From assembly GCA_040954595.2 (NCBI GenBank), contig CM082578.2:8355519-8419518 (forward strand): a DNA stretch of 64,000 nt, in the 5' to 3' direction. Shown here piece after piece: positions 6,019 through 34,301 of this stretch; the first letter of the stretch is position 1; each line of letters begins with the position of its first letter. The notes beneath the pieces are model-generated. The model worked only from the letters and a program-made list of their open reading frames with translations. It made no database searches and was not told where the DNA came from. The DNA is from Balanoglossus misakiensis (lineage: Eukaryota; Animalia; Hemichordata). Made by a program: the position numbers and the translations under genes.

Positions 6019-9000
6019 ATGGATGAAAAAGCAGCGGTAGCGGCAGGCACCGAGCTGAGACACCGGTACGAAAACGACGCCATGGAAAGCAAAAGCGACG
6101 ACGGGAAGAGCGTGCAGCTCGCCACCGATTCGGAGGGAGTTGCTATGAAACAGAGCATAAACTTCGTACGGGCATCATCTATGATCGTGGGCTGCATCAT
6201 CGGTTCGGGAATCTTCATCTCTCCGGCGGGAGTTCTGGAGTACAGCGGCTCTACGGGTACGGCTCTCATAGTCTGGGCGTTGTGCGGCGTGGTGGCTTTC
6301 CTCGGCGGGCTGTGCTACGCCGAGCTGGGCTGCGCGATCACCAAGTCCGGCGGGGAGTACACCTACCTGAAGGTGGCCTTTGGTCCTTTTCTGGCTTTCC
6401 TGATGTTGTGGATCAACTTTCTGATCGTCGCGCCCGGCAACGTCGCCATCATTTCGCAGACGTTTGCAATTTATTGCGTGGTGCCGTTCTACGGAGATTG
6501 CTACCCGCCGGACTGGGCAGTCATCCTCATTTCAGAAGCGTGTATTAGTGAGTAAACTATTTATTCATTCTATTTATTTTATTTGGGTAGTTGGTTCGTT
6601 AAATTAAATCATAAATCTTGTCACCGTATATATTGGTACGAGGCCTTGAAACTGACAACAATGTTATAATGACGACGACAGGTAGGATAGGTCAGTCAAA
6701 AATTTTAAACCAAAATTTAAAAAAACACTACACTAACTGCCCTCAAAACCAAATAAGTTAAAGACAGCTATATCAGATCCCGTTAGGAAATACGATGGCA
6801 TCGGGGTTTAAAATGCAGATGCGCAACGACGACGCGTGTCCTCAAAAACACTCCGTTGCATCATCTTCTTCTTCCGCCATGCCGGCAAGTCGTTAACACC
6901 CAAAACGATGCATGTGTCTGTTTGAAAACAGAGAAGTCAAACATTGGCGATGACTCACATACCCATCGGTCTAACCAGTGCCCATGGTGATGTATACATG
7001 CTGCGGCAGTTCACGTGGCGTGTGTGTATAAGATGTCCGTGTAGTCTATTACTAGTATTTAGTCGGGCCACAGTGTGTGTAGTGACTGTGGTCAGACATT
7101 CTGAAATGACATTCTTCATTCTGTCTTTGCCTATAAGATTGGACAGAATGTCTTGCATCAGCTCTCTGTTGTCTGAAAGAGCCCTTTCGATGGCTGGTGA
7201 CGTGTGACATGGGGGAAGCGAAGCCAAAAGTCCTTCAAATTGTAGGAGAATTGAATCGCATCGTATTGTGCGCGCTTGATGTATACGAAATTTCGTCTTA
7301 AGTAATATTATCGCCTTGTTCGTGAGAAGCATGATTTTGAAATCCGCATTGAGATCCGCATTCCATTGGTGATTGGGCCAAGTCGTTTCAGGACACGTGT
7401 GATGGGGCAAACTTTTTGCTGGTTAAGATGAGACGAAGAACAACATTTCGGGCAGTAATAAGAGGAGCATTTTAAACATTAGTTGGCAAAGAAGAAAACG
7501 AATAGGGTGTCATACAGGGTTAATACAGTTGCTTTGAATTGAGGGATGAGCTTTTATTTAGACACTGAACTATTGACGTACCCTTACACCCTGTTGGTGT
7601 TTGCCAAATACAGATCCAGCTATCGAAAAGTTAAAAAAAATGCATATGATAAACAATATGATTTGTGACGCATATGAAATAGACAATTGTAAACACGGGG
7701 AACAAATAGACAGGTGTGACAACACCTGTTTTCACGCGCATGTGACAAATCATCCGATTACAGATATCGTCTTCAGAATTTGTCTGCTTCCAAAGAGGGT
7801 TTTTTTAATAGAAACTTGAAGCCGGTGAAACTAGATCAGCAAACTGTATCAATTAAACAACAATATTGAACACGGTGAAACTGTGATTGGTTGTGCAGGA
7901 AAACCTTTCTGTTACGTATGAATAACAATAATCGATATTATAAAATGTGTATTTGATGAATGATAAAGATAAGGAGCACACGTGCGCAGGATTGTATTTT
8001 GGCACCTCGCTCCATTCTTATTAGTTATATTAGTTTAGTGGAATTATGTATCTCCGAGCTCAATGTTTACCTGTCACTGACAAACCATTCCACTATCCCA
8101 TCTTGCCTTTCTAATCTACGAGACAACTGAGGCAGAATGAATTACGAACATTTAGAGATATCGTCGCATTTCTGAATAAGAAGCGCGCAAAGATCACACG
8201 ATTAATACGAGAGCGAGATCATTTTTCGCACCCGAATTTTGATGATTAGCATGTAAATTTGATTATTGTTTGACAGTTTCTGGTCAGTAGAATTTATCGG
8301 TAATTGTGCGATGTCACAGTGGAATGTCCGAGGATTTTTCTTCTTCAGAATTCAACCCTTTTAACATCCGAGCATGTCGTCATACTGTATGGGTGACGTA
8401 ATAATGCCTGTGCTCAAATAGAAGAGGTTTGAGATCCAACTTATGTCGCTGGTATTCAATGTGTGGAGAATTCAAACATTGCCAACCATTATAGCACGGA
8501 AGTAAAAAGCTGCAAATGAAGATGTACAACTCACTTATTAACAATTTATTAGTGGTGAGACATTATTTGTAAACATGCCTTGATAATACGGGATGGTATC
8601 ACCGCGTGGGTGTTATTTGGGTCACAGTGACACAGATTGATAAATGAAGGTAATTAAACCAATGGACCGGGACTTTGATTAGCGGTAGATATAGGTCGAG
8701 GTTCACGATTTCATCATACTATATGTGATGAGAATTAAATCTAAAAACAACGCAGGGTGCTGAAAATAATTAACAGGTCGCAGTTCGAGGAGGAATGGCT
8801 TACCCTTTGGTCGCGTTAACCAACTGTTGTGTTTTTAAAAAGTAATATGCCATAAAACATGACAATTTCGAGATTCTATAATCTAAACTAATCTACAATC
8901 TTCTCCGAAAGGTCAGTGTTGATGTGATAATCAGAATCAGGCGATAAACTCAGGGGGTAGGCTACTCGCTCATAGACGGTAATGAACCGTTCGTTTTTCG

Positions 9001-12000
9001 CTTAAAAAAACCCAAAGTGCGTGCCGTTAACATATCAAATGTTCCAGTGCTTTTGAAAATGCAACAAAACAACGGTAAATGACATCAAAATATCAATTTT
9101 TAATAGAAATCCCTAACGATTGGTCAGTTTTTGTGGAGTATACATGTTTTGAACTTGGCCACGCCCCCCTCGTAGGATAATAGTGGGAGTACCCCCGGGG
9201 GTAAACCCTTCACCATGCATTGACTGGACTTGGCCATGCCACCGGTACTGAACCATGACATACATTGCCATTGCATCATCCAACTCCATTTGACGACAGA
9301 GAAAAAAAAATGCTACAACAAACATCATGTGGAACATCAGTACCACATCGGTTATTTTATGTAAGCTTATATCTAATTTTCATCAAAGTAAAGTTCATAT
9401 ACTCAGCTTAATGAAATTCATGGTACTTGTATTTGGGGTTTCCACAGATTGTCCTCCTGCAAGATCGTGGCTTTGGGGGAAAATAAACCTTGCAGGCAAA
9501 ACATACAATGCCACCTCAGGTTATATTTAACCGAAGCAAAACCAAACATAAACACGTCTGGCCACTGGCCAGTAATTGGCATTTTATCTTGAGGACTCGG
9601 ACACTCCAGAATCTCTAGGTGTGACGTATGTCGCACGTGGATGGCGCATACGCGTAAGATCATCTCTGGCCGCTCAGTAGAAAGAAATCACCAGTTTGTA
9701 TAGACAACACAGCGCAGCAAGGGGAGAATCTCGACTATGCCACGAAGTAGACACCGCCCGATACCTATCACGATCACTAAAGAAGTGCCGGCAATATAGA
9801 TACAAGGGATTCAGTGCCCCCAAATGCATGCCCTCTGTATCATGACCTCTGTAGCATCTCACGTGAAGTGATATTCTGTTCTATCACGATAATTCAAACT
9901 ACAGCACACATCACCAAGAATGTTATCTTTACAACGATGATTTCTGAACCAACAAAACAATTTAATTAGCAGTTGGAGCACTCAAAGTTGAAATCAAAAC
10001 AACGTAGACTATGATGGCGTACAGTTTTTATCAAGTTTATTTGCCTTCAGGAATTAAAGTCTGTAAATATTATTTCTATTTTTTTTATTAAACCTGCTTC
10101 CAATTTGTCGTCGATCAACGCGGATATAGTCATTAATCAATACTATATGATAAGCGTTATCTCTTGGCAGGCATATCAGTTTAGTAAACATGCCTTGTAT
10201 TTGACATAATTACAGCTCCGATGCACAAAACTTTTTGCATTTTTTACCTCAAAACATCATCCAATAATTAGCATGATTTTCATTGGTGACGGTCCGGTGT
10301 TTACAACGGGATTCGTTCTCAAAACACACATTGTTGATCTCAATGACGCATTCCAATGTGCATCGCAGATAACCATGCGCCCTCAAAACATCGCCTTCAT
10401 GTGAACCGAACACATACTGCGTCATGTGGACATGCGCAAGACAAAGCACACTTTATCTTTGGGCGGGACAGTTTTGTTCGAACTATTTTCAAACTAACTT
10501 TTTTGCCTCCTTGAACTAAAAAAACAAAACCATGACGTCAAATTGAAATTGGAACGTGAAGAAGCAACCCTATGAGTAAAAGTGCCACTGACTGATGGAA
10601 CTAAATGAGTTAATCCGAATCCTATAGTAAAAATTTATCATATACCATTTACTTTTTCTTTTCTTTTCACAGTTCTGATATTCGCCTATAACTGTTGCAC
10701 CGTAGTGGGCGCTGCATGGGTACAGGTTGTGTGTACCATCGCCAAAGTGGCCGGTCTGCTGATTATTATCATCGCTGGTATCGTTCTGCTCATTCAAGGT
10801 TGGTATATATAAATTGATAAGATTTCAGCTACATGATGATACCACTGTCTGGATCATCGATAAATAAGTCCATACCCTCCCAGTGAGAGTGTATTCATCT
10901 GTTGGCACTTTACAAGAATGTTCAGCTTGTATTCAGCTATGATTTATGACTTTCAATACAGGTAACACGGAATATTTGAATTTCAACGGACCCGGTACCA
11001 ACGTTGTACGTATTTCCATCGCATTTTACAACGGTCTTTTCTCATATGCAGGATGGTAAGAATTCACATATTCAGTCTTATAATAATAAAACAATGGGTC
11101 GTTCTACAGGTACAATTGCGCATAGTATCTCAACCTTGAAATTTCGACTTCAAAATATACTTTTTAAAAAGCTTAGCTAAAATCAGTAAGATACCTTCTT
11201 CAAACTGAATTACAATGTCCTTTACATTTGAACAAAAATTGGCCGATAAACATCCAAATTTTAAGCTATACTGTACAATGAAGGTTCCACGAAACGTCTC
11301 CAAGTAATGTCTACACAGTCTTAGTCACTGTTTTCATTGCCCAATCTCAATAGTTAAAGAAAAACTAAAGTTTGCCACTCGTATTATTTGCAGGTCATGT
11401 CTAAACGCCATTACAGAAGAAATGAATAACCCCAAAAGGTTGGTTTGGTTTGTTTGTCCGAACTTTCCGGTTGGTGTACTAATTTGCATATTCATGAGAA
11501 AATGTGACGTCATTTGCGATCAACGCTATTCCAAGCAATGCTATAATAGTATTGCTCACACAGAATAGTAGAATATGCATTCCCATTAATGTGCTGGCGA
11601 TATTCTTTTTGAACAGAGACTTCCCAATCTCCCTGTCGGGATCCATGATCGCCATCACCGTTATCTACGTACTCACCAACATCGCCTACTTCGCTGCGAT
11701 GTCTCCGTTAGAAATGCTGGCGTCGCCTGCTGTAGCTGTGGTAAGAGAAATCATCATAACATTATTCACTAAAATCAGGACCATCAGGCTTTCCTATTAT
11801 TCTGAATTCAGGGTTGGTTTTCTCGTTATCATCATTAAACTTTATTGTCCCTAAAATTGGAAACTTGTCTTGCAACGGCACAAAACATGAAGAAGAATGA
11901 AAGTGGCCGTGGACTGGCCTTCTTCTAAAACTCTGACACCACTCCACCGTGTTTGATCGCATCGCTGAACAAACTTAATATACATATATTGTAGCCAGGA

Positions 12001-14134
12001 ATTGATTTAGAACATCTCTTGCAGACATTTGGTGATAAAGTACTTGGCAACTGGGCGTGGTTGATGCCTGTGGCTGTGGCGTTGTCAACCTTTGGAGCTG
12101 CCAATGGCCAGGCTCTAGGATTGTCAAGGTAAAGAAATTTATTGATAAAACTTAAAATGGCCCCGTGGGCTACAAATGTGATACAAAATTAATACAAATA
12201 GAACAGAAAACTCTACAAATCAACCATTATTAAAATCTACAATGTACACATCGCTATTAAAGTTCTTCAGCGAATGTTGTAATATACGAATACATGGTCT
12301 TGATTTCTTGTCTTTGCGATCGACAGGCTGAACTTTGTTGGAGCGCGTGACGGCCTCTTCCCAGATCTCCTCGGTATGGTTCACATCAAGTTCTTAACAC
12401 CCATGCCAGCTTTAATATCAATGGTCAGTTCACTTATATTTTTTTTTATATTCTTCTTTCTCTTCTTTGTTCCAATGCGCCTTTCAAATCTAAGATGGGA
12501 GAGTCGTATTAATATAGCATGATCGATTACCATTCAATCCGGGTAGTTTTGCACTCGGCACGTGACAGTATGTTCATTATACGCAGAGTTTGCATCGAAA
12601 AAAGTTTCGACGTCAACCTGTCCCAGGTTTCAACCGGCGAACTAGAAACCAGCACTGTATGTGAAAGACTTTTTTCGGGTCCGCCAGCACGCTATCAATT
12701 TTGAGGTAGACCGTCCGTGGCTTTCGTCGCAATAATATAGGATTACTGTTTACCAATCCAAAAGCTATTACCCATTGTAAAAAGAAGCGTTACTTTTGAA
12801 TCGCAGGGCATACTCTCCATGTTGTACGGGTTGTACCCGGATGTGGGTACCCTAATTAACTACACCAGTTTTACGTATTGGCTGTTTGTTGCCCTGGTGA
12901 CAACAGGTTTGATCACCATGCGTTGGACGCACAAGGATTTGGAACGCCCATTTAAGGTATGTGATTGCATGGACAAGCTGATTCAAGATGATAATTGGCT
13001 GTGTGTGATATCTGTGTTATTCAAAGGAATTGTTCATCGGCTTCTCACATGTGTATAGTACAGAAACTGGTGCCATCGGAAAATTTCACGTGTACAAACA
13101 GACTGACCAGCCAATTCACCAAGCAGAAAAAGTCTTCAAATGCTAAAAGCGTTATATTCTTCATTTTCCTATTGTTTGCAATTCCTGACCATTGATGGCG
13201 TTGCACCTGTTCGGTAAGGATATGTAAATAACGCTCAATTATGCACCAACCAACATATTTCTTGACGTGGACATTTCTATGCAAAACACATGCCCCTTTC
13301 ACTTTGATGGTGCAAAATGCCCTGCTATTATTCCCAGTACTTTGGTATACATGTATATTGTCTTTTTACCAAATAACATATAAATATACATCGTGTGTTT
13401 CATTCACAGTGTCCACTTGGGATAGCCATCTTTTTTGCCATTTTCTGCTACTTCATCGTGTTTGTCTCCATCTTCTCCGCAACCATGGAAGCTGTCATCG
13501 GTACAATTATCATTCTGACCGGTATACCTGTTTATTTCTACGCCGTCAAGTGGGTAAACAAACCCAAGTGGCTGGTGAAAATACTAAGTATGTTTTAGAT
13601 CGATTATTTATAATAATTATGATATCACGTTAGATGTTAGACATTTTACTACTTGAAGGGAATATACATTAGAATTTATATACAAACGTTTTTGAAATTA
13701 TCACATCAATCAAAAAGGGTTATTCAGTTTTCATAACTCGTTGACATGTATACAATCAATATCCTCTTGTCACACATTTCGTAGGAAAACCGAATGTAAC
13801 CTTGAACCCGTGTTCTTAATTTTGTGATTTGCTCATCGGTTACCAAAGGGCTATTGAATGTGGTTTTTATATCATATTTCTTGCAGACAAGCAGCGATTT
13901 CACTTTCTGAGAAAAGTCAAATATCAATACATTTTATAGTTGGCGCGTCGATCTTATAACAATAGTGTTCGAAGGCAACTATATCATGCAAGAGACACGC
14001 ATACATTCGTTGCTTTGTATCGCCAGTGTTACTCTCATATTATCATTTTCTTTTTCATTATTCCTACAGATGGTGGTCTCCATTTCTCTCAGAAGTACAT
14101 GCTGGTTGTGATGCAGGAAAAAGACACGTTTTAA
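6019..14134 (+). CDS. SLC7 L-type (heteromeric) amino-acid transporter light chain, gene A, 10 coding exons, about 503 aa
   Basis: Exons 6019-6547, 10673-10798, 10962-11055, 11394-11438, 11617-11740, 12025-12128, 12327-12423, 12807-12956, 13410-13587, 14070-14134 total 1512 nt with an open frame. Motifs: [10 protein letters not shown] (TM1), LCYAELG..KSGGEY, GDCYPP (heavy-chain disulfide Cys), GLFSYAGW (TM6), [22 protein letters not shown]. Orthology to a specific vertebrate SLC7A member cannot be assigned by eye. Confidence 0.95.
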
Positions 14135-18024: not shown

Positions 18025-21000
18025 CTAAAAGGTATCTCCTTCTTGCATCACAACTAGCATAAGCTTTTGAAAGAAACTGAGACCGCCGTCTGTGGGATAA
18101 AGAAAGAAAGAAAGAAAGAAAGAAAGAAAATAGCGTCAGTGACAATGAGCGCCCGATGCATCTGAACACTTTAACGAAAAAATTCCAAAACTTTGATTAA
18201 TATGCAAAAAAAATTAAAAATCCGTGAATCATACTTAGGATGTTGACCAGCCAGGTAGGTTTGCTTTTCCATTTGACGGCGTAGAAATAAACCGGCACAC
18301 CGGTGAGAATGATGATTGTACCGATGACGGCCTCCATGGTGGCGGCAAAGATGGAGACAAACACGATGAAGTAGCAGAAGAGACCGAAAATGACGGCTAT
18401 CCAGATTGGACACTATGGAGACAAGAAAATTTAGTAAAAATGAGTGTCAAAGATACAGGATCAGCCTCTTCTCTAAACTACTTGGCATAAATATTTGTCT
18501 GAAAATAGCAAGGGGACACGGATGCGACACAAAATGAACTTTCACTGTATGTTAAATATTGGAATCTCGATAATTACCATCAATGTACCTTAAACGGGCG
18601 TTCCATGTCTTTGTGTGTAAAGCGCATGGTAACCAGACCTGTTGTCACTAGGGCGACAAACAACCAATATGTAAAACTGGTATAGTTGATGAGGGTACCT
18701 ACATCCGGGTACAACCCATACAGCACAGACAAAATACCCTGGGATAGTAAAGAAAGAAGAATAGTGATATTAATATTGTTATAATGTATTGTAGTGTGAT
18801 GCTTAAAGTGTTTGAGGTGTAATACGAAATATGCATTTCGATTTTTATCCATGGAGCAGTACTACTGTAAACCTGTTATATTTGGTATTTTTTATAAATA
18901 TTGATAATACTTCTGAGGTCTTGGTCTAGTCAAACTCACATTAGCCTCAGTCTATATAAATGAACACTGACTATTTTGATTGCATGTTAATCAACATTAA
19001 ATGTACTGACCATTGATATTAAGGCTGGCATGGGTGTTAAAAACTTGACGTGGACCATCCCAAGCAGGTCCGGGAAGAGGCCGTCACGTGCTCCAACGAA
19101 TATTAACCTGTAAATCACACGACAGCCCAATAATTATAATGACATAGTTTATGTTAGAAGAGTATGATAATGTGGGTTTCTGCGTCATCTATGACGGGCG
19201 AAAATATATTTTCCACGAAGTCAGCCCTCGACGTAAGATGAAGCGCTTTTAACCACCAAACTCGATCGACTGTCCGTGACGAAGGGAAGTGGAGGTCATT
19301 TTTATGTGTCGACAACAGAGAATAAGAGAGTTTGTTATTTATTTTACTACCGCGGTATCTATAGGTACAAATATTTTACCTCGATAATGCCAAGGTTTGA
19401 CCGTTTGCAGCACCAAAGGTTGACAACGCCACGGCTACCGGCATCAACCAGGCCCAGTTGCCAAGCACTTTATCGCCGAAAGTCTGCAAAAAATGTTTCT
19501 AGTATTATTCAATCCGCTCCAACGAGCGCGTGTACGTTGCATTATAGATATTGACATAATATATGAGATAACGGATGAATAAATCTGAGAATTAACGGGG
19601 AAATTCTCTTGGGACATAGCTTTGCAGGCTAACATCCAAAGCAATTGGGAACATACATTTCAACGGACATGTATATAGTAGACAGACAGACAGACAGACA
19701 GGCAGACAGGCAGGCAGGCAAGCAAACAAACAAACAGGAAAATTGAACCCTGGTATATACATGTAAATGTACTGATAAAGGAGGTTGATCAACCAACTCG
19801 GTCCACAGTCCCTCTATCACATAATATAGATGGACTGTCCAGGCGACTTGAATGTTCACTCCCCCCCCCCCGATTGTAAACAGTAAACTTACCACGGCCA
19901 CCGCAGGGGACGCTAACATTTCTTGGGGGGACATCGCAGTGAAGTAGGCGATGTTGGTGAGTACGTAGATAACGGTGATGGCGATCATTGACCCCGACAG
20001 GGAGATTGGGAAGTCTCTGTTCAAAAAGAAAATAAGGCAGTTTGGAATCTGATCTTTCGGGTAGAAATTCACAAGGAATGCAGTGTTGTGTTGCGTTGTG
20101 TTGTGATTTTGTTACAATTATATCGTAACGTTAACGGTGCTGTCATAATGCATTTTCAATCGATCCTGAGGATATCCTTCCCTTTATTGTTTATTCACTA
20201 TAGCCAGTGGAGCCCGCGCTATGGCTTAGAAATATAGAAAGATAGCTTGACGAATCAAACTAACCTTTTCGGGTTGTTCATTTCTTCTGTTATGGCGTTT
20301 AGACATGACCTGTGAAAGTTGTCAGGAAAGAGAAGAGTTTAAATGTCAGTATTTAAATCACGGAACAGACAAAATGACAGTCATGCACAGCCAAAGATCG
20401 GATATAATATGAAGACAGGCGGAGAGATTGACACATTGAAGGATAGTAGAGACACAACTACGAAAGTAATCTTTTTAATTTCCCAATTCAGATAAATCAC
20501 GTCGTTATTCATCGCCAAAGATTATATTTTTGACCAAAGTAAATGGACAAGGATTCTTATTGGTCCATTTTCTATCTGGGCCCTTTGTTTGCTTTATTGT
20601 ACTCCGTTGATTTTTCATTTTGGACAACAATGACCCGAAAAATGTCTGTCCCAGGCCTTCTGAGCTGCAGAATGATTACATCTTTAACAAACACGAACAC
20701 TTACCATCCTGCATATGCAAAGAGACCATTGTAGAATGCCAGTGACAGGCGCGCGACGTTGGTGCCTGGACCATCGAAATTTAAATATTCCGTATTACCT
20801 GTATGAAAAAAGTCAGAAAATATCGGTGATTCAAGAGACGAAGGGCCCAACTTTCGTAGTCTTCACTTTAAAGTGATCGCATATATTTTTGAAAGGACGC
20901 AGTCTTTTTATCCGTAAGAGGCGTGTATATTTTGCAGATCAGCGCAATGTTTTCGGATTGCGTAGATAAATGTAGGCTACACCCGAATATTATTAAGACG

Positions 21001-21286
21001 AAATATGAAGTTGTTTCAATTTAAAATAATCCTAACTCAAAATGTCGGAACATTAAATGCCAATTGGTGTTCTCAACACGCGGGGGGAAAAACTCGTGGC
21101 TTTATCACCACTTCTGGTAAAAACCGTGTTACGTGAGGAATGGACACAAGCGGTTCCTACCTTGGATGAGCAGAACGATACCCGCAATGATAATAATCAA
21201 CAGGCCGATCACTTTGGCGATGGTACACACAACCTGTACCCATGCAGCGCCCGCTACGGTGCAACAGTTGTAGAAGAATATCAGAA
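18025..21286 (-). CDS. SLC7 light chain gene B, constant region (coding exons 2-10)
   Basis: Minus-strand exons 21286-21161, 20798-20705, 20309-20265, 20016-19893, 19483-19380, 19107-19011, 18738-18589, 18412-18235, 18089-18025. Lengths (126, 94, 45, 124, 104, 97, 150, 178, 65) are identical to gene A exons 2-10. All are GT-AG; the protein ends VVMQEGDTF*. Confidence 0.95.
18100..18129. repeat. (GAAA)n microsatellite forming the polypyrimidine tract of the last gene B intron
   Basis: Run of about 7 GAAA units next to the exon 10 acceptor on the minus strand. Confidence 0.85.
19680..19736. repeat. Compound tetranucleotide microsatellite (GACA/GGCA/AAAC)
   Basis: Visible tandem units. Confidence 0.85.
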
Positions 21287-23397
21287 CTGTGAAAAGAAAA
21301 GAACAAAAATGACTGTAGTAACTGTTAGTGGGATATTAGTAAGTTAACATTTATTGACGACAATGCTAGTGGTTGAAGGTAGCTGGCGAGTCTGAATGCA
21401 GTAAACAAACCCGCTAAAAAGTGTAGGACGCAAAGCATCTACCACCCTAGGCAGGCTATAAGCACATAGAGGGACATCGCATTCATCCAATGAGTGGTCT
21501 TCATTCAACAACATGCCGACTGCGCCGATAACATGATTTATTTTAGTTTGGAAGCATCTCAGCAATTAATCCCTAAAGGTCACGCTGTTACATCAAAACC
21601 TAGACACCCCCCCTCTATTCGACAGTCAGGGACTATGCCCCATACTGTTATCTATAGTTGATTGGTGAATGGTGTATATAAAGCACCATCTACTTCTAAC
21701 ATGTCAACCCTAGCTGTCTCTTTAATGCCCTCGTCATCACGTTTAGCATATTAATGTGTACATTCAGAATTGTGTGGTGCTGAAACACGCTGTCTGGTTG
21801 TTAGGTAATTCATTACGAATTTTATCTTAAAGTAAATGTTTGTTACGATTCCATGGTAAGATATAGAGCCAAGATGACCCCCGATTTGCCGTAACCACGC
21901 AGCCGTGAGTCAAATCTCAACCAAGCAAAGCTGTGCGTGACGAAAAACGTTCGTAGAGTTTATTTGTTAATGAAGCACATTGATTGATCCGTACAAGTTC
22001 GAATCCCTCAACGACAGCGTATAAATATATGCTTGATAGCGACTGATGGGTCAATGATACAGAAACTGAACAGACCATAGATAACGGCGACCCTTGAAAT
22101 GGGCGATATCGCTATTTTTTACATCTTATTTTATTCCAGTCGATAAATTTTCAGGGTTTCCAGCTATACTGGAATTTGCCGCATGTTACATCGTGGGTTA
22201 GGCCTATCAGAGGATCATAAATATCAAGGTGGATGGAGGAAACTGAAGGCATATATGTTGATACGTTAACTAATAGAACGACGACTGACACACTAATATC
22301 ATCCTGACGATTGTAAAAGTTAGAATTTTAGCGAGTTTGGTTTCCTCTCTTCTGTGACAAACGCAAGTAGGATCGATCGGATTCCGACGTTAGGTGTACA
22401 TGTATATCACTGTACATGTAAGACCAACAAAATCGGCAAGACGGTACACTTTGATTGTTCGGAGATAGGTTTTTGTTTCGGGTGTCGCGCGAAAACAGAT
22501 GATGCAATCACCGGCGGTAGTGTCAGATTTGGTTCAAGCATATACAGTAGTCTACTGCCTATAGTTCAAGGCAAATCAGTCATAATAATGGGACAGTATG
22601 TAGTTATTACTTAACACTCACGTGCGGCATTTTGTTGACCTATTTTGCCGACAGGTGTGGATTTTAGCCTTTGAAACCCTCTGATTCATTACCCATTCGT
22701 TTTACATGGCCTGATTAATAGAGAATGATGCAATGTAGTCATCCTGACAAACTTCGGATGTCAATCAGAATCATAATCAGAAACAATCGTTCATAGTTCA
22801 TACGATAACGGTTCGCCCTTCAATGTACCGAATCTGATTAAATGTCGTCGGGTTTTGTTTAAGAGAGCGCTCAGTGATTACGGGAAGGGAGGGCAGGACG
22901 AATAAAAAGGGTCGCGTTTCACAGCCGTTGGTCACGGAAGAATCAAATGTTAAATTTGTAACTGCAAAGAATGCGTGATGTCGCGTCAAAAGATATTTAC
23001 TTAAAATTCATAAATAGTTTTCTACCAATTAAGTAATTGACTCAAGTGATATTGTATCAACGAAGTGACAATACGACAATGTATAATTTCGTCTGCTCAA
23101 AAAGTTATATTTAATTAGAATATCTAGCAACCAGAAGCGTTCACTCTTGTCAACCCGAACCGTTCAAGTTCAATTTTCACGGGAGAACTTTCAATTCGAA
23201 TGCAACTGAACTGCAACGTGTATGGATTGTGGTATTGATCAGAATTTCGGAAACTTCCCTTGCCGAGAGAGGCTATCTGTGTGTAACGGGTCGCCGCCGG
23301 ACGAGACAGGGTACAGTGACTCAAGGTTCAACTTCAAAGGTCAATTCCTATGAAGATGGTGGGATAATGCTATCGGAACGGTCTGTTTGTTTTCTAC

Positions 23398-23518
23398 ACA
23401 CGCCTTTTGCAAAATGGTGCGTGTAAGTTTGAAACCTACAACACGCTTGTCGATATCGGCCGCAAGGTGCGTGGAGGTTTCCCTGCACACGCCTTTTGCA
23501 AAATGGTGCATGTAAGTT
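23398..23518. repeat. Spaced direct repeat of about 32 bp
   Basis: CACGCCTTTTGCAAAATGGTGC(G/A)TGTAAGTTT occurs at about 23399 and about 23487. Confidence 0.7.
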
Positions 23519-24002
23519 TTTATCAAATCACTTGCTAGGCAAGATCGTTCACACACTGTGGCGTTCATGTGTTCTTTCCTGTTCACAAATGCATTGTCTT
23601 GGATAAATGGTGTCAAGCGATGGCTAGCTACATGTACATGATTGACACTGGTATGCGCGACCACTTTATAAGGGGTGACCCATTTAATATTGGGGGGTAT
23701 TTGCATAAACTGGTCGAAACGACTTGCCCCACTTTGCACGAGTATATTTTCCGGCATTACCTGAACATGGTTAGGTTAGAGGGTTTCCTAAAAATAATCT
23801 CAAGAAGAATAAAATCTGGTTGCGAACCTTTTAGACACAACAACTCTGACTTAGTTAAGGAACCCTGGGATGTGTTGAAAATTTATCAGTGAAGGATTCT
23901 GCACTATGTAGATATATCATGTTGTACTCTGATTTTGGTTGGCCATACAGAAATATTGAAATGTCAACATAATTTTACTGATGATATTAGTGCAATACTT
24001 AC

Positions 24003-24438
24003 AAATACACGCCTCACTAATCAACAAGACGGCCAAATGCGGAGGATCACAGTCTCCGGTGAAAAGCACCACCACATAGACGGCGAAAGTGTCCGTCATT
24101 ACAACGACGCACGCAGGCGAAATCAGGAATTTCACCCACAACACCAGAAACGCCAAGAAGGGACCAAAGGCCTCGCTCACGTACGTCATCTCCCCGCCGG
24201 ATTTCGGGATGGCGCATCCCAGTTCGGCGTAACACAACGCGCCAAGAAAAGCGACCAGGCCACTGAGCGCCCAGACTATGAGAGCAGCGCCGACCGAACC
24301 GCTGTAGTCCAAGACCCCCTTTGGCGATATGAAGATTCCCGAGCCGATGATCGATCCCACGATGACAGATATAGCATACGTCAAAGAAATCGGTTGTTTC
24401 GCGACCACTTGTTTGCTGGCACACCGTTTGTATTTCAT
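24003..24438 (-). CDS. SLC7 gene B variable coding exon 1, copy V1 (predicted isoform about 472 aa)
   Basis: [70 protein letters not shown]; 436 nt; donor T|GTAAGT, phase 1. Confidence 0.85.
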
Positions 24439-25098
24439 AGTGCCTGCTTTGACTGTTGCTTGAGGAAAGTGTCTCTGGTTTGACGCGAACCCAGAGGAAC
24501 ATTAGTAGAAGAAGGCGTTAATGGGCTGCCGCCCCTCCCCCAAAATATTCTTTTATTATAAGAAAGCACCTCACACATGAGTCTTTGACGCTTATTAATT
24601 ATGCAAGAAGACTTCACACGGCGTGTAATCTTTTATCAGAAATATACTGTTAACAGTCAGAATATGACACGCCAAAGCCACCACAAGAAAGAAGCCCAAG
24701 AAAGACCGTCTTTCTTGAGGGACTGTGTTTTAAAGCTACAACGTCTCCTACGTTGTTGAGGGAAGTAAGTTTACATTATATTAGTATTAACTTCAGATGA
24801 CCGAACATTACGCATAAAAGAAGAGTTGAAACTGAGAATGAGCCCTTCTCTCACAAATAGAAGTCATCAGACAGTTATTTCCCAACTCTGCCATTGTAAT
24901 GGAACCCTGGGATATGTCGGGGAGAAAAAGTTATGTGTGGGCCTAGTTGCCAAACTTCGGTTTTGGTCCATCTTACAAGAAATGTTGACCGCTCGGATAA
25001 TTTGTGAAGTGACGGTCAAATATAATAACTTTAGCAGACCTTATAAAATGCAATTAGAAATTGGGCTTCATTGCTGCAACGTCCACTGTAATACTCAC

Positions 25099-25567
25099 TT
25101 ATACACGCCTCACAAATCAGCGTGACTGCCCAATACGGGGGATCACAGTCCCCGGTGAAAGGCACCACCACATAGACGGCGAAGGTCTGTGTTATGATAG
25201 CCACGCTTCCAGGTACGACAATCAGGAATTTCACCCACAACACCAGAAACGCCAAGAAGGGACCAAAGGCCTCGCTCACGTACGTCATCTCCCCGCCGGA
25301 TTTCGGGATGGCGCATCCCAGTTCGGCGTAACACAACGCGCCAAGAAAAGCGACCAGGCCACTGAGCGCCCAGACTATGAGAGCAGCGCCGACCGAACCG
25401 CTGTATTCCAAGACCCCCTTTGGCGATATGAAGATTCCCGAGCCGATGATCGATCCCACGATGACAGATATTGCATACGTCAAAGAAATCGTTTGTTTCA
25501 TGACGACATGGTCGCTGGAGTTCGTGTCTTTTCCATTTCGCAGCTTCCTCGCCTTAGAAGCCGTCAT
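25099..25567 (-). CDS. SLC7 gene B variable coding exon 1, copy V2 (predicted isoform about 483 aa)
   Basis: [57 protein letters not shown]; 469 nt; donor A|GTGAGT, phase 1. Confidence 0.88.
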
Positions 25568-26309
25568 CTTGAACCTCCAGGGGCTCTCGAACGCCTCTAC
25601 TCAGGAATTTAGACTTCCCGCTCCGATATCTGGCCCCGGGGAACAGAATACACAGTCTAGGCCACAGCAGCACACTCGAAAACAACTGAGAATAACCACC
25701 AGACGTAGTCAGCCACAGAATGTAATCACCAACTCTCCGTCACTCTCCAAGCCATAGACGGTCGCGTACTGTAATCGACTTCAAGGAAGCTCCATGTGAC
25801 GTAACGTTTCCCCACAATATTTTTTGTCGGAAATGCGTACGTGTAGTTACTGTGATTTCGAGTTAACGGGACCGAAATGGCCAGCAGAGACTCTATACCA
25901 GAACGGTACAATCCGCACTCTGAATTTGTGACAACTCAGGCTACCGACACGTTCACACCACGACGGGATCACTTGTCTTAGCCCCGTGCCTGTCACCTGG
26001 AAGACGTAACTCTTATATCCGCCCTTGCGATTGCTTATCACTACCAACCGTCACCACAATCTCCGACATGCAGAGAGGACATGCTAAAGATGCTACCATG
26101 CGCCCCAACAACAATAGGGAAAGATACGCTGTCGGGTGTTCCAAGGGAATTTTACTGATAGCAAATGATAAAAATTGTCTTTTCGTTTCTGCACAGTCAT
26201 ACAGCACAAATGGTTCAACTTTTGCTCATTTCTTTATTTTGGCCCAGAAAGCATCACCCCAACAGTAATTAGTATACTTCGAATGAATCCCGCGCTTCAC
26301 AGCAATACA

Positions 26310-27137
26310 ACTAATAAATACCAGTGTAGCCTATATATTTAATAGCAAATGTCACGTGACTAAGGTCGCATCAAGTTCATTTTGTGCAAAAAAGGTTTTA
26401 AAGGGACAAGTGGTATTTTAAAAGGGGCAAACACCATACTCTTTGTATGTATTCTGTAGCTGTCTATTAGCAGCAAAATAGCATAGTGTGAGATGCACAG
26501 ACAAGCTGTGCACCAACAATCTCGGACAGTGTGACCTTTTGCACCCGAACGGATTAAAAAGAGATAGCAAATTAGGTAAATTAAAGATAACACCTATCTC
26601 AACAGCTGATTTTTTAAAGAATCTCTCTCCCCTCCCTCTCTCCCCCCTCTCTCGCTTGCTCCCCTCTCTCTCCCCGTGTCTCTCTCTGTCTCTCCCTCTC
26701 TCTGTCTGTCTCCCTCTGTTTCTGTCAGTCATCGAAACCTCAGGAGAGGCTAATCAGATTTGAATCAAATTCAGTTCAATTTTTGTGCGACAAGAACTAA
26801 GCAGTTTTGGTGGGCGTGGCATTTTAAAGGGGCAATGACCTTTCTTGGTGAATTTTGTGTACAAAACCAGACAGTGTGGGTCATGTGTGTCTGTGTGTGC
26901 TCCTACCTCTATTGGCTACTAAATTGACCAATCGGAGTGCGCCATACAGGAAATTGACTGCTCACGTCGCCGGTAAAGGCTCGAAAAAGTTCAGTTTTTT
27001 TAAAAGAAATATGATCACAGAAACAAAAAATGATCACAAATTTTGCCATGTTACCATGGAACATATGTTGCTAATTAATGCTAATTATTTTTCAACTATT
27101 AGCAACGCCCGGGTCATTGCTCTGGCCAATCAGTAAT
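26310..27137 (+). mobile_element. Possible non-autonomous Helitron-like insertion containing a CT-rich microsatellite (26623-26727)
   Basis: Non-coding block with an internal microsatellite and a subterminal GCAACGCCCGGGTCATTGC hairpin-like motif near 27101-27120. A canonical CTAG end is not seen and the boundaries are uncertain. Confidence 0.3.
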
Positions 27138-27359
27138 GTGTCGCGTACGGTGATTGACTTGAACGACGTCAGAGTCAAAACCATGTGGTGACCTCGTTGC
27201 CGTGACATATCGCATTTTGAGTTCTATTGACATGCAGATCTGAAAAATGGAAGGTAGTTGACTGTGTGGCCAGACCCTTGTGTGTGAGTCTATCTAAAAT
27301 ACACTGGGTATGGTGACCAGGCTTGTATCATGACACAAGGCATACCCATTGATCGGTAT

Positions 27360-27409
27360 CTCTGTCTGCCTGTCTGATTGACTGACTGACTGTGTGTGTG
27401 TGTGTGTGG
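27360..27409. repeat. (TCTG/TGAC)n-(TG)n microsatellite
   Basis: Visible tandem units. Confidence 0.8.
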
Positions 27410-27507
27410 TGAGGTGACCCCAGTTTCCCGTTGAAATTTTTCCGAATTTGAAGATGGAATTCAAGTTCATGGTCGTTTGAGTTTCCAATATCGAACATGG
27501 TGAGTAG

Positions 27508-27575
27508 TAGTCTAGTAATCTGGCCGTATTTTGTCCGCTTTGCTTGGAACAAAATACGGCTAGATTACTAGACTA
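27508..27575. mobile_element. 68-bp palindromic MITE with TAG..CTA termini and a 9-bp target-site duplication
   Basis: 27-bp arms with 1 mismatch (TAGTCTAGTAATCTGGCCGTATTTTGT / ACAAAATACGGCTAGATTACTAGACTA), flanked by GGTGAGTAG at 27499-27507 and 27576-27584. Confidence 0.85.
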
Positions 27576-27699
27576 GGTGAGTAGCAGACTTGCGACAGTT
27601 CCCCCGCACCCCCGATAATGATTGAACGCTCCCTAAACTTAAGACATATTATACCATGAGCGCGATGGCAAATGTGTGGGTTACCGCCGTGTTACTTAC

Positions 27700-28207
27700 T
27701 GAGGCAGGCCTCACAGATCAGTATGACAGCCCACACTGGGGGTGTGCAGTCGTCGTAGAACGGCACAATAATGTAGACAGCAAATGTCTGGGCGATGATG
27801 GCGATGCTTCCTGGCGCAACAATCAGAAAGTTGATCCACAGCATCAGGAAAGCCAGGAAAGGTCCAAAGGCCTCGCTCAAATAGGTGTACTCGCCTCCCG
27901 ACTTGGGGATGGCGCAGCCTAACTCGGCATAACACAGTCCGCCGAGAAAAGCGACCAGACCACAGACCGCCCAGACTATGAGGGCCAAGCCGACGGAGCC
28001 GCTGTATTCCAAAACCCCCTTCGGTGATATGAAAATACCCGAGCCAATGATGGACCCGATAATGACCGCGGTTGCCGATACCAAGGTGATGTGCTTCCCA
28101 AGGACGATGCCACTACGACTGTCCGATACCACGGAGGACTTTTCATCTTCCTCCGGGGACTCGATGTGATTCCTCTCTCGCAACTCTGTCGCACCGTGGT
28201 TCTCCAT
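27700..28207 (-). CDS. SLC7 gene B variable coding exon 1, copy V3 (predicted isoform about 496 aa)
   Basis: [58 protein letters not shown]; 508 nt; donor A|GTAAGT, phase 1. Confidence 0.88.
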
Positions 28208-28407
28208 CTCATCACTGATTGAGATTCAACGGACACAGTTCTACTTCGACGCGACGAACTCCAACCCAAAACGCCAACCGGCAACAGATTGAAGGAAAAC
28301 TCACAGACTTTGAAACATGTCACACCACGCGCTTTTGATGCCTGCAAAGAACAGAGCTCGGGCGCTCGTGTTGCCCACATTTCATTGGACACAGCGTCAT
28401 GATTTAA

Positions 28408-28423
28408 ATTTGCATATGCAAAT
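28408..28423. promoter_or_regulatory. Palindromic double octamer (POU-type) motif upstream of V3
   Basis: ATTTGCATATGCAAAT, two back-to-back ATGCAAAT octamers about 200 bp 5' of the V3 ATG. Confidence 0.35.
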
Positions 28424-31400
28424 CGCACAACGGGAGCAGGCGAAATGTGATGTTTCCAGGATCATATTTGTAGAGACACCAGCAAAAGGGAAGAAATACA
28501 TGAACAACACTTAACAGTTAGGCGAATTTGCAAATCGCGTACGGTATCTAGGTACGAATTCATTTTGATATTGATGTGTGAAATTCAAAAGTCAGTAGCC
28601 GTGAATGCTGCAAAGAATTTGGGAACTGCGACGACAGGATAGGATGAATCTGATTTATGTCGGACGCCATGACATTTGAACTGAGACGTCGAATAATATA
28701 AAGAATGACTGCCATAACACCTGTTGATTCAGTCCTATTTCAGATCCACACTGACATTTATAATTATTTACCATCATGTATGTAAACACTCGTCTTCAAG
28801 GACGAAACAGCCTGAGGGCAGATCTAAATGTAGGTCATAGAATCTCTAGATTTTGCAAATTCCGGCTCGAGGTACAAATCCGAAATAATCGAAATATTCG
28901 AACAAGCATGTTCGAATGTCAAGGAGAGATTCCAAAAACAAGCGTTGTCCGGTTTATATTGTCACTGAGTGAGAACTGAAGCACCGTCATGAAAATCATC
29001 ACATGACGTCACGGCCTGTTTGCCGGGCTAAATGTAGTAAGCCCAGCTACCGCGTCACAGTCACATGATTTAGAAGTAAATACGAAAGACATGTCCCGTA
29101 AGTTGAAGGCCAAATTGCATGATTATGCTTTTAAACCTTTCAAACAAACTTGCTGACGCACTATACAACCGAACTTAAAAGAGCCAACCTATACAATATG
29201 TGGAAACAACCAATGGCGATGATTTTGACCGAATCTAGAGTGAATACAATGATATAGTTTGCTGACGTATTTGATCAATTCGATTATTGAGACATGGTCA
29301 ATATAAAGTAAACAGTTTGTGATGTCTGTTCTGTTGTCTACGATTTTTTCTAGCTTTGTCGTCGGATAGGACCAATAACTGATTTCTCACAGGTTTTACG
29401 GTAAAAACGGGTGCTCTCATTAACTTTGCTCCAGTTCCTTATCAACATGTACTGCGAACTTGGGAGCATTCCTGGTGTGTCATCAATTCAATAATTTACG
29501 GGGTGTTTTTGTCTGTTACTGATTATCTGAATGTAGACACAAATGAAATCGCGACCTCCTATACCAACAGTCTCAGTAATTACTGTACACACGAACAAAA
29601 AACGAGCTCTCCATAAACGCGTGATTGAAAATGGTTGGCAAACCATCGGCTTTACGTTGGCTTCCCAAACATTATCTTGCGCAATGGAGGAATAGAATCG
29701 TTTTTTAGAAAATGGGATGTTTTTGTTTTAAAATCCAACCAAGGTAACTACCAACAAACTTACAAAACAACACGTGTTATGGTCCTAAGCCCCACCCACC
29801 ACGAGTGTATACGTTCAAATATGACCGGTCAATTGTTTCGCCATCCTATCCCTCGCAATTACTAGGAGTTCGTGACCGTATAATCACAACGGACAATGCC
29901 ATGAATATGGTTCATAAATGTAAATTAATGAGATGATCGACATTAATCGTGAGATACTTGTGCAGTTTCCATGCGCATTTAGTTTCGATCGGTTACTATA
30001 AGTGAGGTACCTTGCCCAGATCCGCATCTTCAAAATAAAATGATATACACTTGGAATATATATAATAGATCTGTATTCAGTACTAGAAAGTGAACCAGAA
30101 CTTGAATAATTATGTGTTTATTTGCCGACATAAAAGACTACAATCTCTTCATCATGTTATGATGAAAAATTTAGATGGTGCTCGACTTCGCTTTAATGGG
30201 CGTTACCAACCCCAAATCTTATAGGGCATAGTTGTTCCCTTTAACATTATTTTAGTTAGTTATTTTAATGTCTTTTGATTGGTTAGAAGCTGCATTGTTT
30301 CCTGAAACGTGCATAATTACTGATTGTCACATATCAACTTAGCCCGTTTGGAACCAGAATGGTGATGGTCGGATCATCGCTAAGAAATAATAACATATTT
30401 CCGACCATGGTCCGATAGGTCCGATGCATGTAGGCTTTGTATTTCAAGTATTGCGCGAAAAGAAATGTTCATAGCAACCTTGTTATGTGACGATAGCGCT
30501 CTAACGCATGTCATGTCCAGTACTTGTCTGTCATTGGTCGATATCATCTACATGGGCTTGACTCATTTGGTAATAGGTTTTTAGTTATGGATTTTACCCC
30601 AGATAACATGACGATTCGATAAATTATTGTCCACATGCGTTAAAATGGAATTGATTCGCGCGTTGTATTTTTTTTCTTTGTTCCATACGGCATCATATGA
30701 ACGCATCATATTCAAGAGATCAGAAAAATGTACTATTCGTCACAAGCATTGGGGTCAAAGGTCACGCACCTGCCGACTGAAGCGGGCAAATACCATCATT
30801 CACGTGCATCGTTTGCGTTACTCCCATTGTAAACAAAGGGATATCTCTATGATAAAACCAGACATTTGGTTTGTCAGGGCCAGTACGAAGGTGGTTTGAG
30901 GGGAAGGTCGCGACCCCCGGTGTATACCCTGTTTATATTTGAGTGATATCTTTTAATTAACGCCATCATGCATTATTCGCCACCATTTCCTATTACAAAT
31001 AGTACCATGAGCGAGTGCCCATATTTCGCGACACTTTAAAGACTTGATTGTTGTTTATAAATTTAAAATAATGTTTAAAATTTAACGTGTCAAACGAAGG
31101 GTGTATTATTGTCAATTCAACATTGTGTGTGTACAGCATCGCGTTCGGGTGATCTAGAGGGTGCTCGTTGTTTGTGTCACGCCCATACAATGGGCAATTC
31201 TCCAACTCCACTGCCATGCCATTTGGCATGGATTTTAAACATCACTCAGGATGTTCCACTGAGCTGATCATTGATATAGACTGGGATAACTGAATATTTT
31301 TTGTTAATCAATATACGAATAAATTCCTCATTTGCCAGCGATACATGCAGTTGTAAATAAACGCACAATGAAAAGGGGACCCACACCAGGTACCGTACAG

Positions 31401-32272
31401 TAGAGCACCTGGCATGCATGCAGGCGGTCGGTCTGCTAGCCACGCCTTTCCTCCGCACGTTTGTCATAATCTGCCGGAATTTTCTCACCACACGTGTTAG
31501 AATTTTAATGCAATCGTATAGAAAGGCCTCGAATGACACGATTGTATGCATTGACACCAGAGTCTGGTAGAAATAGATGCTAACATGCGTTGGGGTTGCG
31601 TTTGTAGACAGTCGATATACGCGATGACCGTGCGGTACAACACATGTCATTTAAAGTAGCCCATCAAGGTTACAGAATGTCGAATGTGGAATTTGTGTAA
31701 AAACGGATGATGATAACCGGAGTCTGTTACATGTTTGAGCGTGTTCCGGTGCAATACCGCCCTCTCCGCTCAAATCACCAACTCATTTCGTCTCATTTGT
31801 TCAAGGAGCCGACGAACACGAACTAACAAGAACTAGGTTATATGTAACGGTCACAATTTTAACAAACATCGGACATTACCATGGTTATTGTAATTTTTAC
31901 AGCGGAAGGCAGTAAAACACAAGTCATGATCAAAGTGGAACAGAAAGTCAATCTTTGTCCGCGTTTACACTGAAACATAACCCTGATCTCTGGGTCTGTC
32001 TGCTTTTCAGTTGAATGTTGGTTACTATGCCAACCGCCAAAATAGTGAAAGTAAGATTCTAATGTGCGGGGGGGGGGGGGTCATCACCCCAGCGTATCGC
32101 CTCCCTTCAACGCTTCCAATGTTATGAAACGTAAAAACACGTCTTTCTTTCTCCTAAAGTCACATAACATTTAAAATGGGCAACTAGAAAGCGTGCAATT
32201 GTTTATGATTTTGACATACTATCATGGTAAAACAAATGGCGAGTGTTCTCGCGTATTGTGTATCATACTTAC

Positions 32273-32780
32273 TAGTACATGCCACGCAAATCATTGTGAC
32301 CGCCCAGACGGGAGGGTCACAGCCCCCGTAGAACGGCACCACGACGTAGACGGCGAAAGTTTGCGTTATGATGGCCACGCTTGCCGGTGCGACGATGAGA
32401 AAGTTGATCCACAACATCAGGAAGGCCAGGAAAGAGCCAAAGGCTTCGTTCAAATAGGTGTACTCGCCTCCCGACTTGGGGATGGCACAGCCCAACTCGG
32501 CGTAGCACAGCCCGCCGAGAAAAGCGGCTAGGCCGCTAAGCGCCCAGACTATCAGAGACATGCCGACCGAACCGCTGTAGTCCAGAACCTCCTTCGGGGA
32601 GATGAAGATTCCCGATCCAATAATCGAGCCGATAATAATAGCGCAGGCCGCCGTTAAAGATATGGATTTCTTCATGATGATGGCTCCAGTCATGTCGTCT
32701 GACTTCTCAGACGCCATTGCGTCTCGCGGCTCCATGCCACTACTCCTTCGTCGCACTTCCTTCACCTCGACTGATTCCAT
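32273..32780 (-). CDS. SLC7 gene B variable coding exon 1, copy V4 (predicted isoform about 496 aa)
   Basis: [58 protein letters not shown]; 508 nt; donor A|GTAAGT, phase 1. Confidence 0.88.
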
Positions 32781-34301
32781 CTCTCCGATGTCGACGAAGA
32801 CACGCCAGAAATTGAACTAGGAAACGCTCTTGCTTTGACAAATGCCAGCAAGTTACAAAACGCGGTAAAAAATCCCAGAAAGTTTCCGAAGTTCTGAAAC
32901 TCACGGCCAATGAAAACAAATTCACTCGATGCTCACAGCAGTGTGCTTCTTAGAGTTCAGGTGCACGCCTATCAAACTTTGAACTTTTATCTCACGGTTA
33001 CGAAACGTGTAGTTACATTATGATTACCGGTACATTTATACACACCAAGCAGGTTTGGCCATGTCCACGGCCACTCCTAATAAAAGACGTCCGCGCAACA
33101 AAGCAAATACTCGTGTGATCCGCTGCGCGCTTTTAATATCTTCTATCGACATCGATAGGTCACACGCACTGTCTGGAGTTATCTTTAAGTTTTCTTCGAT
33201 TAGATTCGTTTGAATACTTAATTACAATAACAATATACTACAACAGCCAGAAGACTGAAATATCTTTCTTTAAATCCGTCCCCCCTAAAATGACCCCCGA
33301 AGAAAAAGTATTGGTCTGTGACAAAACTGTATTGTCTATAAAGCAAAGTAGCATGTGGGTGAAAGGTCAATCAGCAATTTCCATGATCATGATTATGATT
33401 ATGACAAGGCCTATATACGTGAGATTTCAATCAATACACGCCCATAACGGAGATGGCAAGCGAGACTTCAACCACGTAATCTGTAATGTCCCTGGAGTTT
33501 GATAACTGCAGCGACGATGTAATACACAAAATTATATACACTTTTGGCGTGTAAAAGTGGGTTGTGATGTAGGCCTATAACAGAGTAAAAACAAAGAAAT
33601 CACTTCAGACGATATTTTACTTCGATAAACCACATATCAGTCATATCTAACCACCACAACAACAAAATGTATTACAAGCCTCGGGTACACTGTTCCGAAA
33701 ACAAGCCAGTTGCTGAGTTTGCCGACCAAACACAAGACTCCATACTCGGAATAGATACGCGCGCGTGTGTGTGCAAAGCTCGTTCGTCATACGAGGGCAC
33801 TTTCCATAACCCAGCTGGTATGAGTAGGAAGGGAAGTTGCGCTATCACCTCAACCAGACCCTACCACTTCCAGCGCCCACTGCAAGAAAATTCCCTCAAG
33901 TTTCACCACTTTGTTGCACATATATTAATGGGGAAGGTATAGTTCAAAGCCAATCTGGTGTGCAAAACTGATACTGTCCGAAATTTACGAAATACGCCTT
34001 AATAGCCAGTTTTTGAAAATTGCTCCAAACTTCACTATTATAGTATTTTCGCTATTATTGTGCGCATTATAATGAGGATCTGATGTTGAAAATTAAAAGC
34101 TAACGTAGAATTAGACATGCAGGCTTTCACTTGATGCCAGCTGACCATGGGTCTGACCCAATCTGATTGAAATCACACTCGACTTCAACAACACATCTGA
34201 GATTTCTTTACATATTTATTTTTTATTCCTTGTTAATGATACAATAATTTTTGTGAACACGCAGGTTGTAGGAAAGGTCGCAATCTCATGATGAACCCTG
34301 C

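Follow-up and report, generated by a model that had tools for sequence, protein, structure and literature searches.

Arrays of variable first exons, each with its own promoter and each spliced to a common set of constant exons, are known from the vertebrate UGT1, UGT2A, GCNT2 and protocadherin (Pcdh) clusters (PMC1885805; here and below, papers are cited for the portions of their text that were considered). The considered portion of that account contains neither the word 'transporter' nor the word 'invertebrate'. In humans, a catalogue of homologous exon swaps includes 39 N-terminal cases, with ASIC1, ASIC2, CLDN10 and CLDN18 among them, and its SLC7 entry, in the part considered, is only the internal one of SLC7A2 (5 of 5 occurrences) (PMC8373072), whose products CAT-2A and CAT-2B differ in affinity (PMC12839458). 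Here we report the analysis of a 64,000-nucleotide stretch of the acorn worm Balanoglossus misakiensis (contig CM082578.2, positions 8,355,519 to 8,419,518; the window), in which an SLC7 transporter gene carries four tandem paralogous first exons, V1 to V4, ahead of a single set of constant exons. We estimate a probability of about three in four that this array works as a UGT1-type variable/constant locus, with predicted separate promoters and splice junctions and with V1 as its doubtful member.

Sequence inspection showed that all four variable exons lie on the minus strand, begin with ATG, keep an open frame and end in phase 1 directly before a GTAAGT or GTGAGT donor. The most upstream exon, V4 (32273..32780, 508 nt, GTAAGT donor), comprises 169 codons plus 1 nt and encodes the N-terminal tail, transmembrane helices (TM) 1 to 3 and half of TM4. 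V3 (27700..28207, 508 nt) and V2 (25099..25567, 469 nt) likewise have an ATG, an open frame and a donor of this kind, and V1 (24003..24438, 436 nt), intact in these signals, has a short N-terminal tail, one codon deleted in TM3 and a 3' third that changes fast. The constant part, on the same strand, consists of exon 2 (21161..21286), whose frame suits all four variable exons and whose acceptor, a pyrimidine tract followed by AG, is presumably shared by them, and of exons 3 (20705..20798), 4 (20265..20309), 5 (19893..20016), 6 (19380..19483), 7 (19011..19107), 8 (18589..18738), 9 (18235..18412) and 10 (18025..18089, open up to the stop codon); all boundaries are AG/GT and the nine exons sum to 983 nt. 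Spliced in silico, V1, V2, V3 and V4 give predicted products of 472, 483, 496 and 496 amino acids without internal stops. A 27-nt inverted repeat (96% complementary, 14-nt loop; window 27508-27575) lies 125 nt below the V3 donor, and an overlapping palindromic double motif, which we take to be an octamer, is found at window 28408-28424 (minus strand), 216-208 nt above V3, with a CCAAT 181 nt above V3, about 30 nt below the octamer.

Only one constant set accompanies the four first exons. DNA profiles of exons 2 to 10 each gave two matches at E<1e-3 in the window, one in the array gene and one in a convergent paralog, gene B (6019..14134, plus strand), all further matches having E of at least 0.13, and a first-exon profile gave exactly five, namely V1 to V4 and exon 1 of gene B. 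No copy or relic of a constant exon between the variable exons was detected by tblastn, self-blastn or the per-exon profiles over the whole window, so that a variable exon can yield a full transporter only through exon 2; the first-exon profile likewise revealed no relic beyond the five copies in the whole window, and no extra last exon was found between the array gene and gene B. The same-strand upstream gene, with its stop at 34301 and AATAAA at 34227 and 34220, ends 1.5 kb above V4, and the array is thus complete at four first exons. An earlier reading of this DNA, made from the letters alone (the sequence-only reading), was accurate on the exon coordinates, starts, frames and donors, on the single set of exons 2 to 10, on the product lengths and on a V2-V1 gap of about 660 bp, which measures 660 nt; gene B, complete in the window, went unmentioned in it.

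Divergence among the variable exons was estimated by the Nei-Gojobori method over 131-132 core codons, in which the synonymous sites of V2, V3 and V4 are near saturation. Pairs among these three exons have a synonymous divergence (dS) of 1.03-1.36, a nonsynonymous divergence (dN) of 0.13-0.16 and a dN/dS of 0.12 (p<1e-17). These values show V2 to V4 to be old copies maintained, as judged from their codons, under purifying selection, and neutral evolution, which the sequence-only reading had proposed to look for in all four exons, does not describe them, with V1 remaining ambiguous (dN/dS against V2 of 0.48, p 0.08). Around the exons, homology between flanks was no better than between shuffled sequences in 10 of the 11 comparisons (eight upstream and three further downstream), the sole exception being a 57-nt intron relic common to V1 and V2. 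For old copies whose flanks have eroded, whose frames and donors have stayed intact and which lack their own constant exons, use via exon 2 is the best explanation.

All four variable exons match PF13520 (AA_permease_2) above the cut-off, with E values of 3.8e-18, 8.9e-23 and 3.7e-19 for V2, V3 and V4, respectively. The best solved relatives among PDB sequences are LAT2, Asc-1 and y+LAT2, and identity to human LAT1, LAT2, Asc-1 and y+LAT1 is about 45%. Among the matches listed, the closest database proteins come from acorn worms, namely Ptychodera flava (69%), Glandiceps and Saccoglossus, and two homologue searches with the window exons returned, within the best 120 matches each, no protein more than 69% identical to V3. 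Two trees, one of the first-exon core (76 rows, 133 columns) and one of the constant part (32 rows, 333 columns), both built from rows without vertebrate LAT1, xCT and b0,+AT, placed the window genes in an acorn-worm-only clade with 100/100 support, P. flava being nearest, as fits an enteropneust close to Ptychodera. By this placement the array gene is an SLC7 light chain of the acorn-worm-only clade, and one-to-one orthology to a named vertebrate light chain (LAT1, LAT2, y+LAT or Asc-1) is rejected.

The numbering of V3 equals that of human LAT2 from about residue 22. The TM1 Gly-Ser-Gly motif (G55/S56/G57) is present in V1-V4, and the equivalents of K194 (the TM5 Lys) and F243 (the TM6 Phe gate) are in the constant part. 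A Cys at the LAT2 Cys154 position, between TM3 and TM4, presumably the site of the heavy-chain disulfide, is found in V1-V4 and in gene B. The structural model of the P. flava isoform X3 (predicted local distance difference test, pLDDT, 85.5), taken as a proxy for the window proteins, matches Asc-1, LAT1 and y+LAT1 with template modelling scores (TM-scores) of 0.86-0.89 and has TM3 at 120-155, TM4 at 162-182 and the exon junction after residue 173; the sequence-only reading was thus right to end the variable segment in TM4, but the junction falls in the middle of that helix and not early in it. The variable exon includes the TM1 substrate-binding motif, TM3, the LAT2 Asn134 site and the Cys154 equivalent, and TM6, TM8 and TM10 are encoded by the constant part and are common to all versions; substrate side chains point to TM3, TM6, TM8 and TM10 (PMC8399266). 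The constant part has no acid at 246 or 249, where acidic residues at the equivalent sites are linked to dibasic transport, and carries Trp/Val/Phe at 396/399/430, as does LAT1 (PMC7653941), which predicts neutral amino-acid exchange by the products.

The RefSeq models of P. flava, the nearest relative among the proteins compared, show an arrangement of the same kind, with two first exons on one tail. Proteins XP_070558674.1 (X2) and XP_070558675.1 (X3) end in the same 331 residues, and the only part in which they diverge is a paralogous first exon, with 123 of 175 residues identical. The X3 exon, 71% identical to V3, groups with V1-V4 (support 99/92 in the first-exon tree and 87/92 in a 19-row tree), and the X1/X2 exon groups with exon 1 of gene B (100/83 and 80/80, respectively). 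Approximately unbiased (AU) tests rejected the grouping of the five window exons as one clade (p 0.009) and likewise that of the two exons from P. flava (p 0.017), but did not reject the V1-V4 clade (p 0.18); the split between V-type and B-type exons therefore predates the two species. The P. flava models have both types on one tail, whereas in the window the V type has been multiplied and the B type heads its own inverted gene. Gene B is a complete SLC7 gene of 504 amino acids, with exon 1 at 6019-6547 and its own exons 2 to 10 at 10673-14134, and its constant part is 90% identical to that of the array gene (dS 0.70, dN/dS 0.09).

Same-gene SLC7 isoform sets were compared in 18 species, using clusters that list members at 90% identity, with which misses are possible. 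A swap of the whole paralogous first domain on an identical tail was found in five of them: P. flava, the snail Biomphalaria glabrata (XP_055896056.1/057.1, tail of 328 residues), the mites Dermatophagoides farinae (XP_046911056.1/057.1, 331 residues) and Dermatophagoides pteronyssinus (XP_027199445.1/446.1, 331 residues), and the copepod Lepeophtheirus salmonis (XP_040583713.1/716.1, 332 residues). Four fused gene models (P0001, P0126, P0405 and P0002), one of a mite and one of a copepod among them, contain two exon-1 domains and one constant region. Other candidates were rejected: isoforms of Daphnia, thrips, damselfly, leafhopper and ant vary at the last exon or by an N-terminal extension and leave the first coding domain unswapped; the double TM1 motifs of rotifer, nematode, fish and tunicate proteins come from fusions of whole genes; and P0169/P0170 have short internal repeats. 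In both first-exon and constant-region trees, the protostome swap genes fall outside the acorn-worm clade, in another subfamily, and their second exons are nested among snail, mite and copepod sequences, respectively. A single origin of these second exons was rejected by AU tests on a 30-row tree, both for a clade of nine rows (p 0.0006) and for one of mite plus copepod (p 0.009), in which the groups were chosen after the first-exon tree had been seen, the columns are few and conversion between neighbouring exons could mask an old duplication. As far as these trees go, the two-exon form likely arose separately in snails, mites and copepods.

Other exon swaps were observed in the same family. 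Homologous last exons are exchanged among SLC7 isoforms of P. flava, Daphnia, Lepeophtheirus and insects (P0003/P0124, P0038/P0133, P0416/P0415, P0387/P0436), and in Lepeophtheirus and Caligus a 19-residue internal exon is swapped as well, giving a combinatorial set. Between two Sitophilus oryzae isoforms (P0072/P0155), a short homologous segment at the N-terminus varies (27 of 31 residues identical), which may represent a small duplicated first exon of the minidiscs-type gene. Paired exon-1-only models located on same-sized contigs, one of 5029 nt (P0225/P0263, P0179/P0255, P0206/P0231), suggest further tandem first exons in Plakobranchus and two other animals.

In LAT2, Asn134 hydrogen-bonds the substrate and the N134Q mutant keeps about 15-20% activity, and both LAT1 and Asc-1 have Ser at this site (PMC7653941). 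Of 127 columns, that of Asn134 alone differs in the exon pairs of all four lineages (Asn/Ser, Ser/Thr, Ser/Asn and Ser/Thr), with 0.28 such columns expected by uniform chance. The same column is Ser in all 18 comparison orthologues; if the count is confined to the 58 invariant columns, 0.057 would be expected for the three protostome pairs and 0.003 for all four, for a site that had been noticed by eye before counting. In the window, V2-V4 have Ser at 134, V1 has Cys and exon 1 of gene B has Asn; the latter also has Cys at 52, as do the second exons of the snail and mite genes. TM3 of the variable exons differs at 122, 126, 131, 133, 135 and 139. A wider proposal, which we offer tentatively and consider rather more probably wrong than right, is that a UGT1-like first-exon module evolved in SLC7 at least four times, once each in acorn worms, gastropods, mites and copepods, with the TM3 contact residue changed each time and the promoter choosing the half-pocket, and that the window locus, with up to four half-pockets, would be its most expanded form.

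In the proposed mechanism, each of V2-V4, and less surely V1, would be transcribed from its own promoter and spliced to exon 2 at 21286, resulting in transporters with different N-terminal tails and TM1-TM4 on one common remainder. The array would have grown by repeated duplication of exon 1 together with its promoter, and each version could have its own expression pattern and possibly kinetics tuned via TM3. The variable/constant architecture proposed by the sequence-only reading thus holds for V2-V4, but its four transporters claim too much, with junctions that are predicted and a V1 that looks relaxed or decaying.

The array could alternatively consist of mutually exclusive internal exons behind one non-coding leader exon and promoter, for which the approximately 1.4 kb between the upstream gene's AATAAA and V4 would leave room. 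A simple matrix built from 18 local acceptors (own scores 4.9-20.1) and applied to the 400 nt above each variable exon detected a site scoring 6.3 above V1, at 24646, whereas the best sites above V2, V3 and V4 (3.4, 4.8 and 2.9) score below all 18 true acceptors and below the background median of 5.75. TATA-like, CCAAT or octamer motifs, as consensus matches only, are present above V2, V3 and V4, and human N-terminal homologous swaps come from alternative promoters (PMC8373072). On this sequence evidence separate promoters are favoured, and a shared leader is unlikely. We regard as very unlikely that one variable exon is used and the others are orphan duplicates, either silent or yielding short three-helix products. 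Such duplicates have precedents in the many exon-1-only gene models in databases, some labelled 'MLAS' by their source, human MLAS being an exon-1 duplicate of LAT1, and one AATAAA occurs in each gap between variable exons; however, AATAAA once per 0.7-4 kb is by estimate no more than chance at the base content of the locus, the donors are conserved, a dN/dS of 0.12 is maintained at dS above 1, and the relatives' RefSeq models splice both exons to the tail. An assembly artefact, whether from alleles or from collapsed tandem genes, would account for the 99% identity of V1 and V2 over 276 nt, but V2-V4 are near synonymous saturation and hence not alleles, the spacers are unique apart from the 57-nt relic, the window has no N, the neighbours are intact single genes and P. 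flava has the same design, which together make this explanation highly improbable.

Two further alternatives concern what the array produces, and both deserve serious weight. V1 may be a decaying copy whose 5' part is kept by conversion from V2, leaving three working transporters. The density of differences between V1 and V2 changes sharply at 276 nt: three lie 5' of this point, whereas 26 lie in the remaining 117 nt (permutation p 0.0005, the lowest value that 2000 shuffles allow). The 5' two-thirds of V1 are a probable conversion tract from V2. Of the 15 residue differences, nine are derived on V1, none on V2 and six are unclear, while synonymous changes split 5, 5 and 2; V1 has the codon deletion and a Gln to Asp change in TM3, and it has lost a conserved Pro and Trp. 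Yet its start codon, reading frame and donor have survived, the deletion preserves the frame, and the changes cluster in TM3 round the substrate site, as positive selection might also produce, so that its sequence may reflect either decay or specialisation in TM3; we judge the decaying copy somewhat less likely than not. Closer to an even prospect is that the architecture serves only expression or trafficking, with separate promoters and different N-terminal tails but the same substrate range. V2-V4 do not differ at TM1 51-58, at 86 or at the Asn134 equivalent, the N-terminal tails are the most divergent part of the variable exons, and most of the pocket (TM6, TM8 and TM10) is constant; on the other side are the six TM3 positions at which the variable exons differ, the Cys of V1 at 134 and the exon pairs of the four lineages, which differ at a site that all 18 comparison orthologues have in common.

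Several observations weigh against a working UGT1-type array or against its wider recurrence. Pairwise dN/dS averages over history and is silent on present use, and the V1-V2 ratio given above is itself high. No upstream motif common to the variable exons emerged from comparisons against shuffles, and CpG observed/expected does not set the upstream regions apart, being near 1 over the whole locus. The shared Ser of V2-V4 at 134 indicates no difference in specificity by that residue. The RefSeq isoforms of the relatives are computed models, and the P. flava region contains additional, incomplete copy sequence as well as alternative 3' ends, so that a chimeric model is possible there. Finally, the first-domain swap was absent from 13 of the 18 species compared (four Daphnia, Caligus, Brevipalpus and seven insects).

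The remainder of the window contains the 3' end of a synapsin gene (902-1879, plus strand; Pfam Synapsin_C), a secreted glucanase-like gene (34301-37049, minus strand), which is the upstream same-strand neighbour of V4 and which we take from its motifs to be of the GH16/beta-glucan-binding type, and Rab GTPase, HAD hydrolase and Isy1 genes (window 38700-62800). Pfam gave no matches for two glucanase-like exon pieces or for 62395-62775. The human genome also has ISY1 adjoining RAB43.

The sequence-only reading regarded this arrangement as undescribed for SLC7. We found no description of variable first exons in SLC7 in open-licence papers, the literature covered here, but two-exon versions exist as RefSeq isoforms in five species, and the window locus, the largest case seen, belongs to a recurrent design and is not unique. 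The four-exon transporter array, the apparent repeated origin and the parallel pocket change are the elements not found in open-licence papers. The variable/constant design, known from enzymes and adhesion proteins, would thereby be extended to a 12-helix solute carrier, with the swap point inside a membrane helix. The predicted isoforms would be natural chimeras, the same in TM5-TM12 and different in TM1-TM4, and allow one to ask how much of SLC7 substrate choice resides in TM1-TM3, a matter for which point mutants of human LAT1 and LAT2 have been used. If true, the return of the design in snails, mites and copepods, together with the parallel change of a pocket residue, would be a clean case of convergent gene architecture. 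For annotation, such loci show up as fused double-domain or exon-1-only models.

Compared with human LAT1, LAT2, Asc-1 and y+LAT1, the window genes are about 45% identical and not one-to-one orthologues, but they have equivalents of the TM1 motif, Cys154, Lys194 and Phe243 and, by the model of the P. flava relative, the same fold (TM-score 0.85-0.89). The RefSeq SLC7 pairs of P. flava, B. glabrata, D. farinae, D. pteronyssinus and L. salmonis are alike in the exon swapped, the junction and the identical tail; two first exons are seen in each, versus four in the window, and P. flava has Asn- and Ser-type exons on one tail where in the window the Asn-type exon heads gene B. SLC7A2 also belongs to the SLC7 family and makes CAT-2A and CAT-2B from homologous duplicated exons, but it is a cationic transporter with an internal 42-residue mutually exclusive exon, compared with a first exon of 145-169 residues here. 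ASIC1, ASIC2, CLDN10 and CLDN18 similarly swap a duplicated first exon on a shared rest, and their swapped exons hold membrane helices and change selectivity, but they are channels and junction proteins with two variants and not solute carriers. UGT1, UGT2A, GCNT2 and the Pcdh alpha and gamma clusters resemble the array in having tandem paralogous first coding exons of one phase on one constant set and a variable exon that holds part of the substrate site; neighbouring variable Pcdh exons also undergo gene conversion. UGT1 differs in its conserved upstream motif, of which none was found at the array, where promoters and junctions are predicted from sequence. From these clusters the array described here stands apart as a 12-helix transporter with a junction inside TM4, in which variable and constant helices must pack together.

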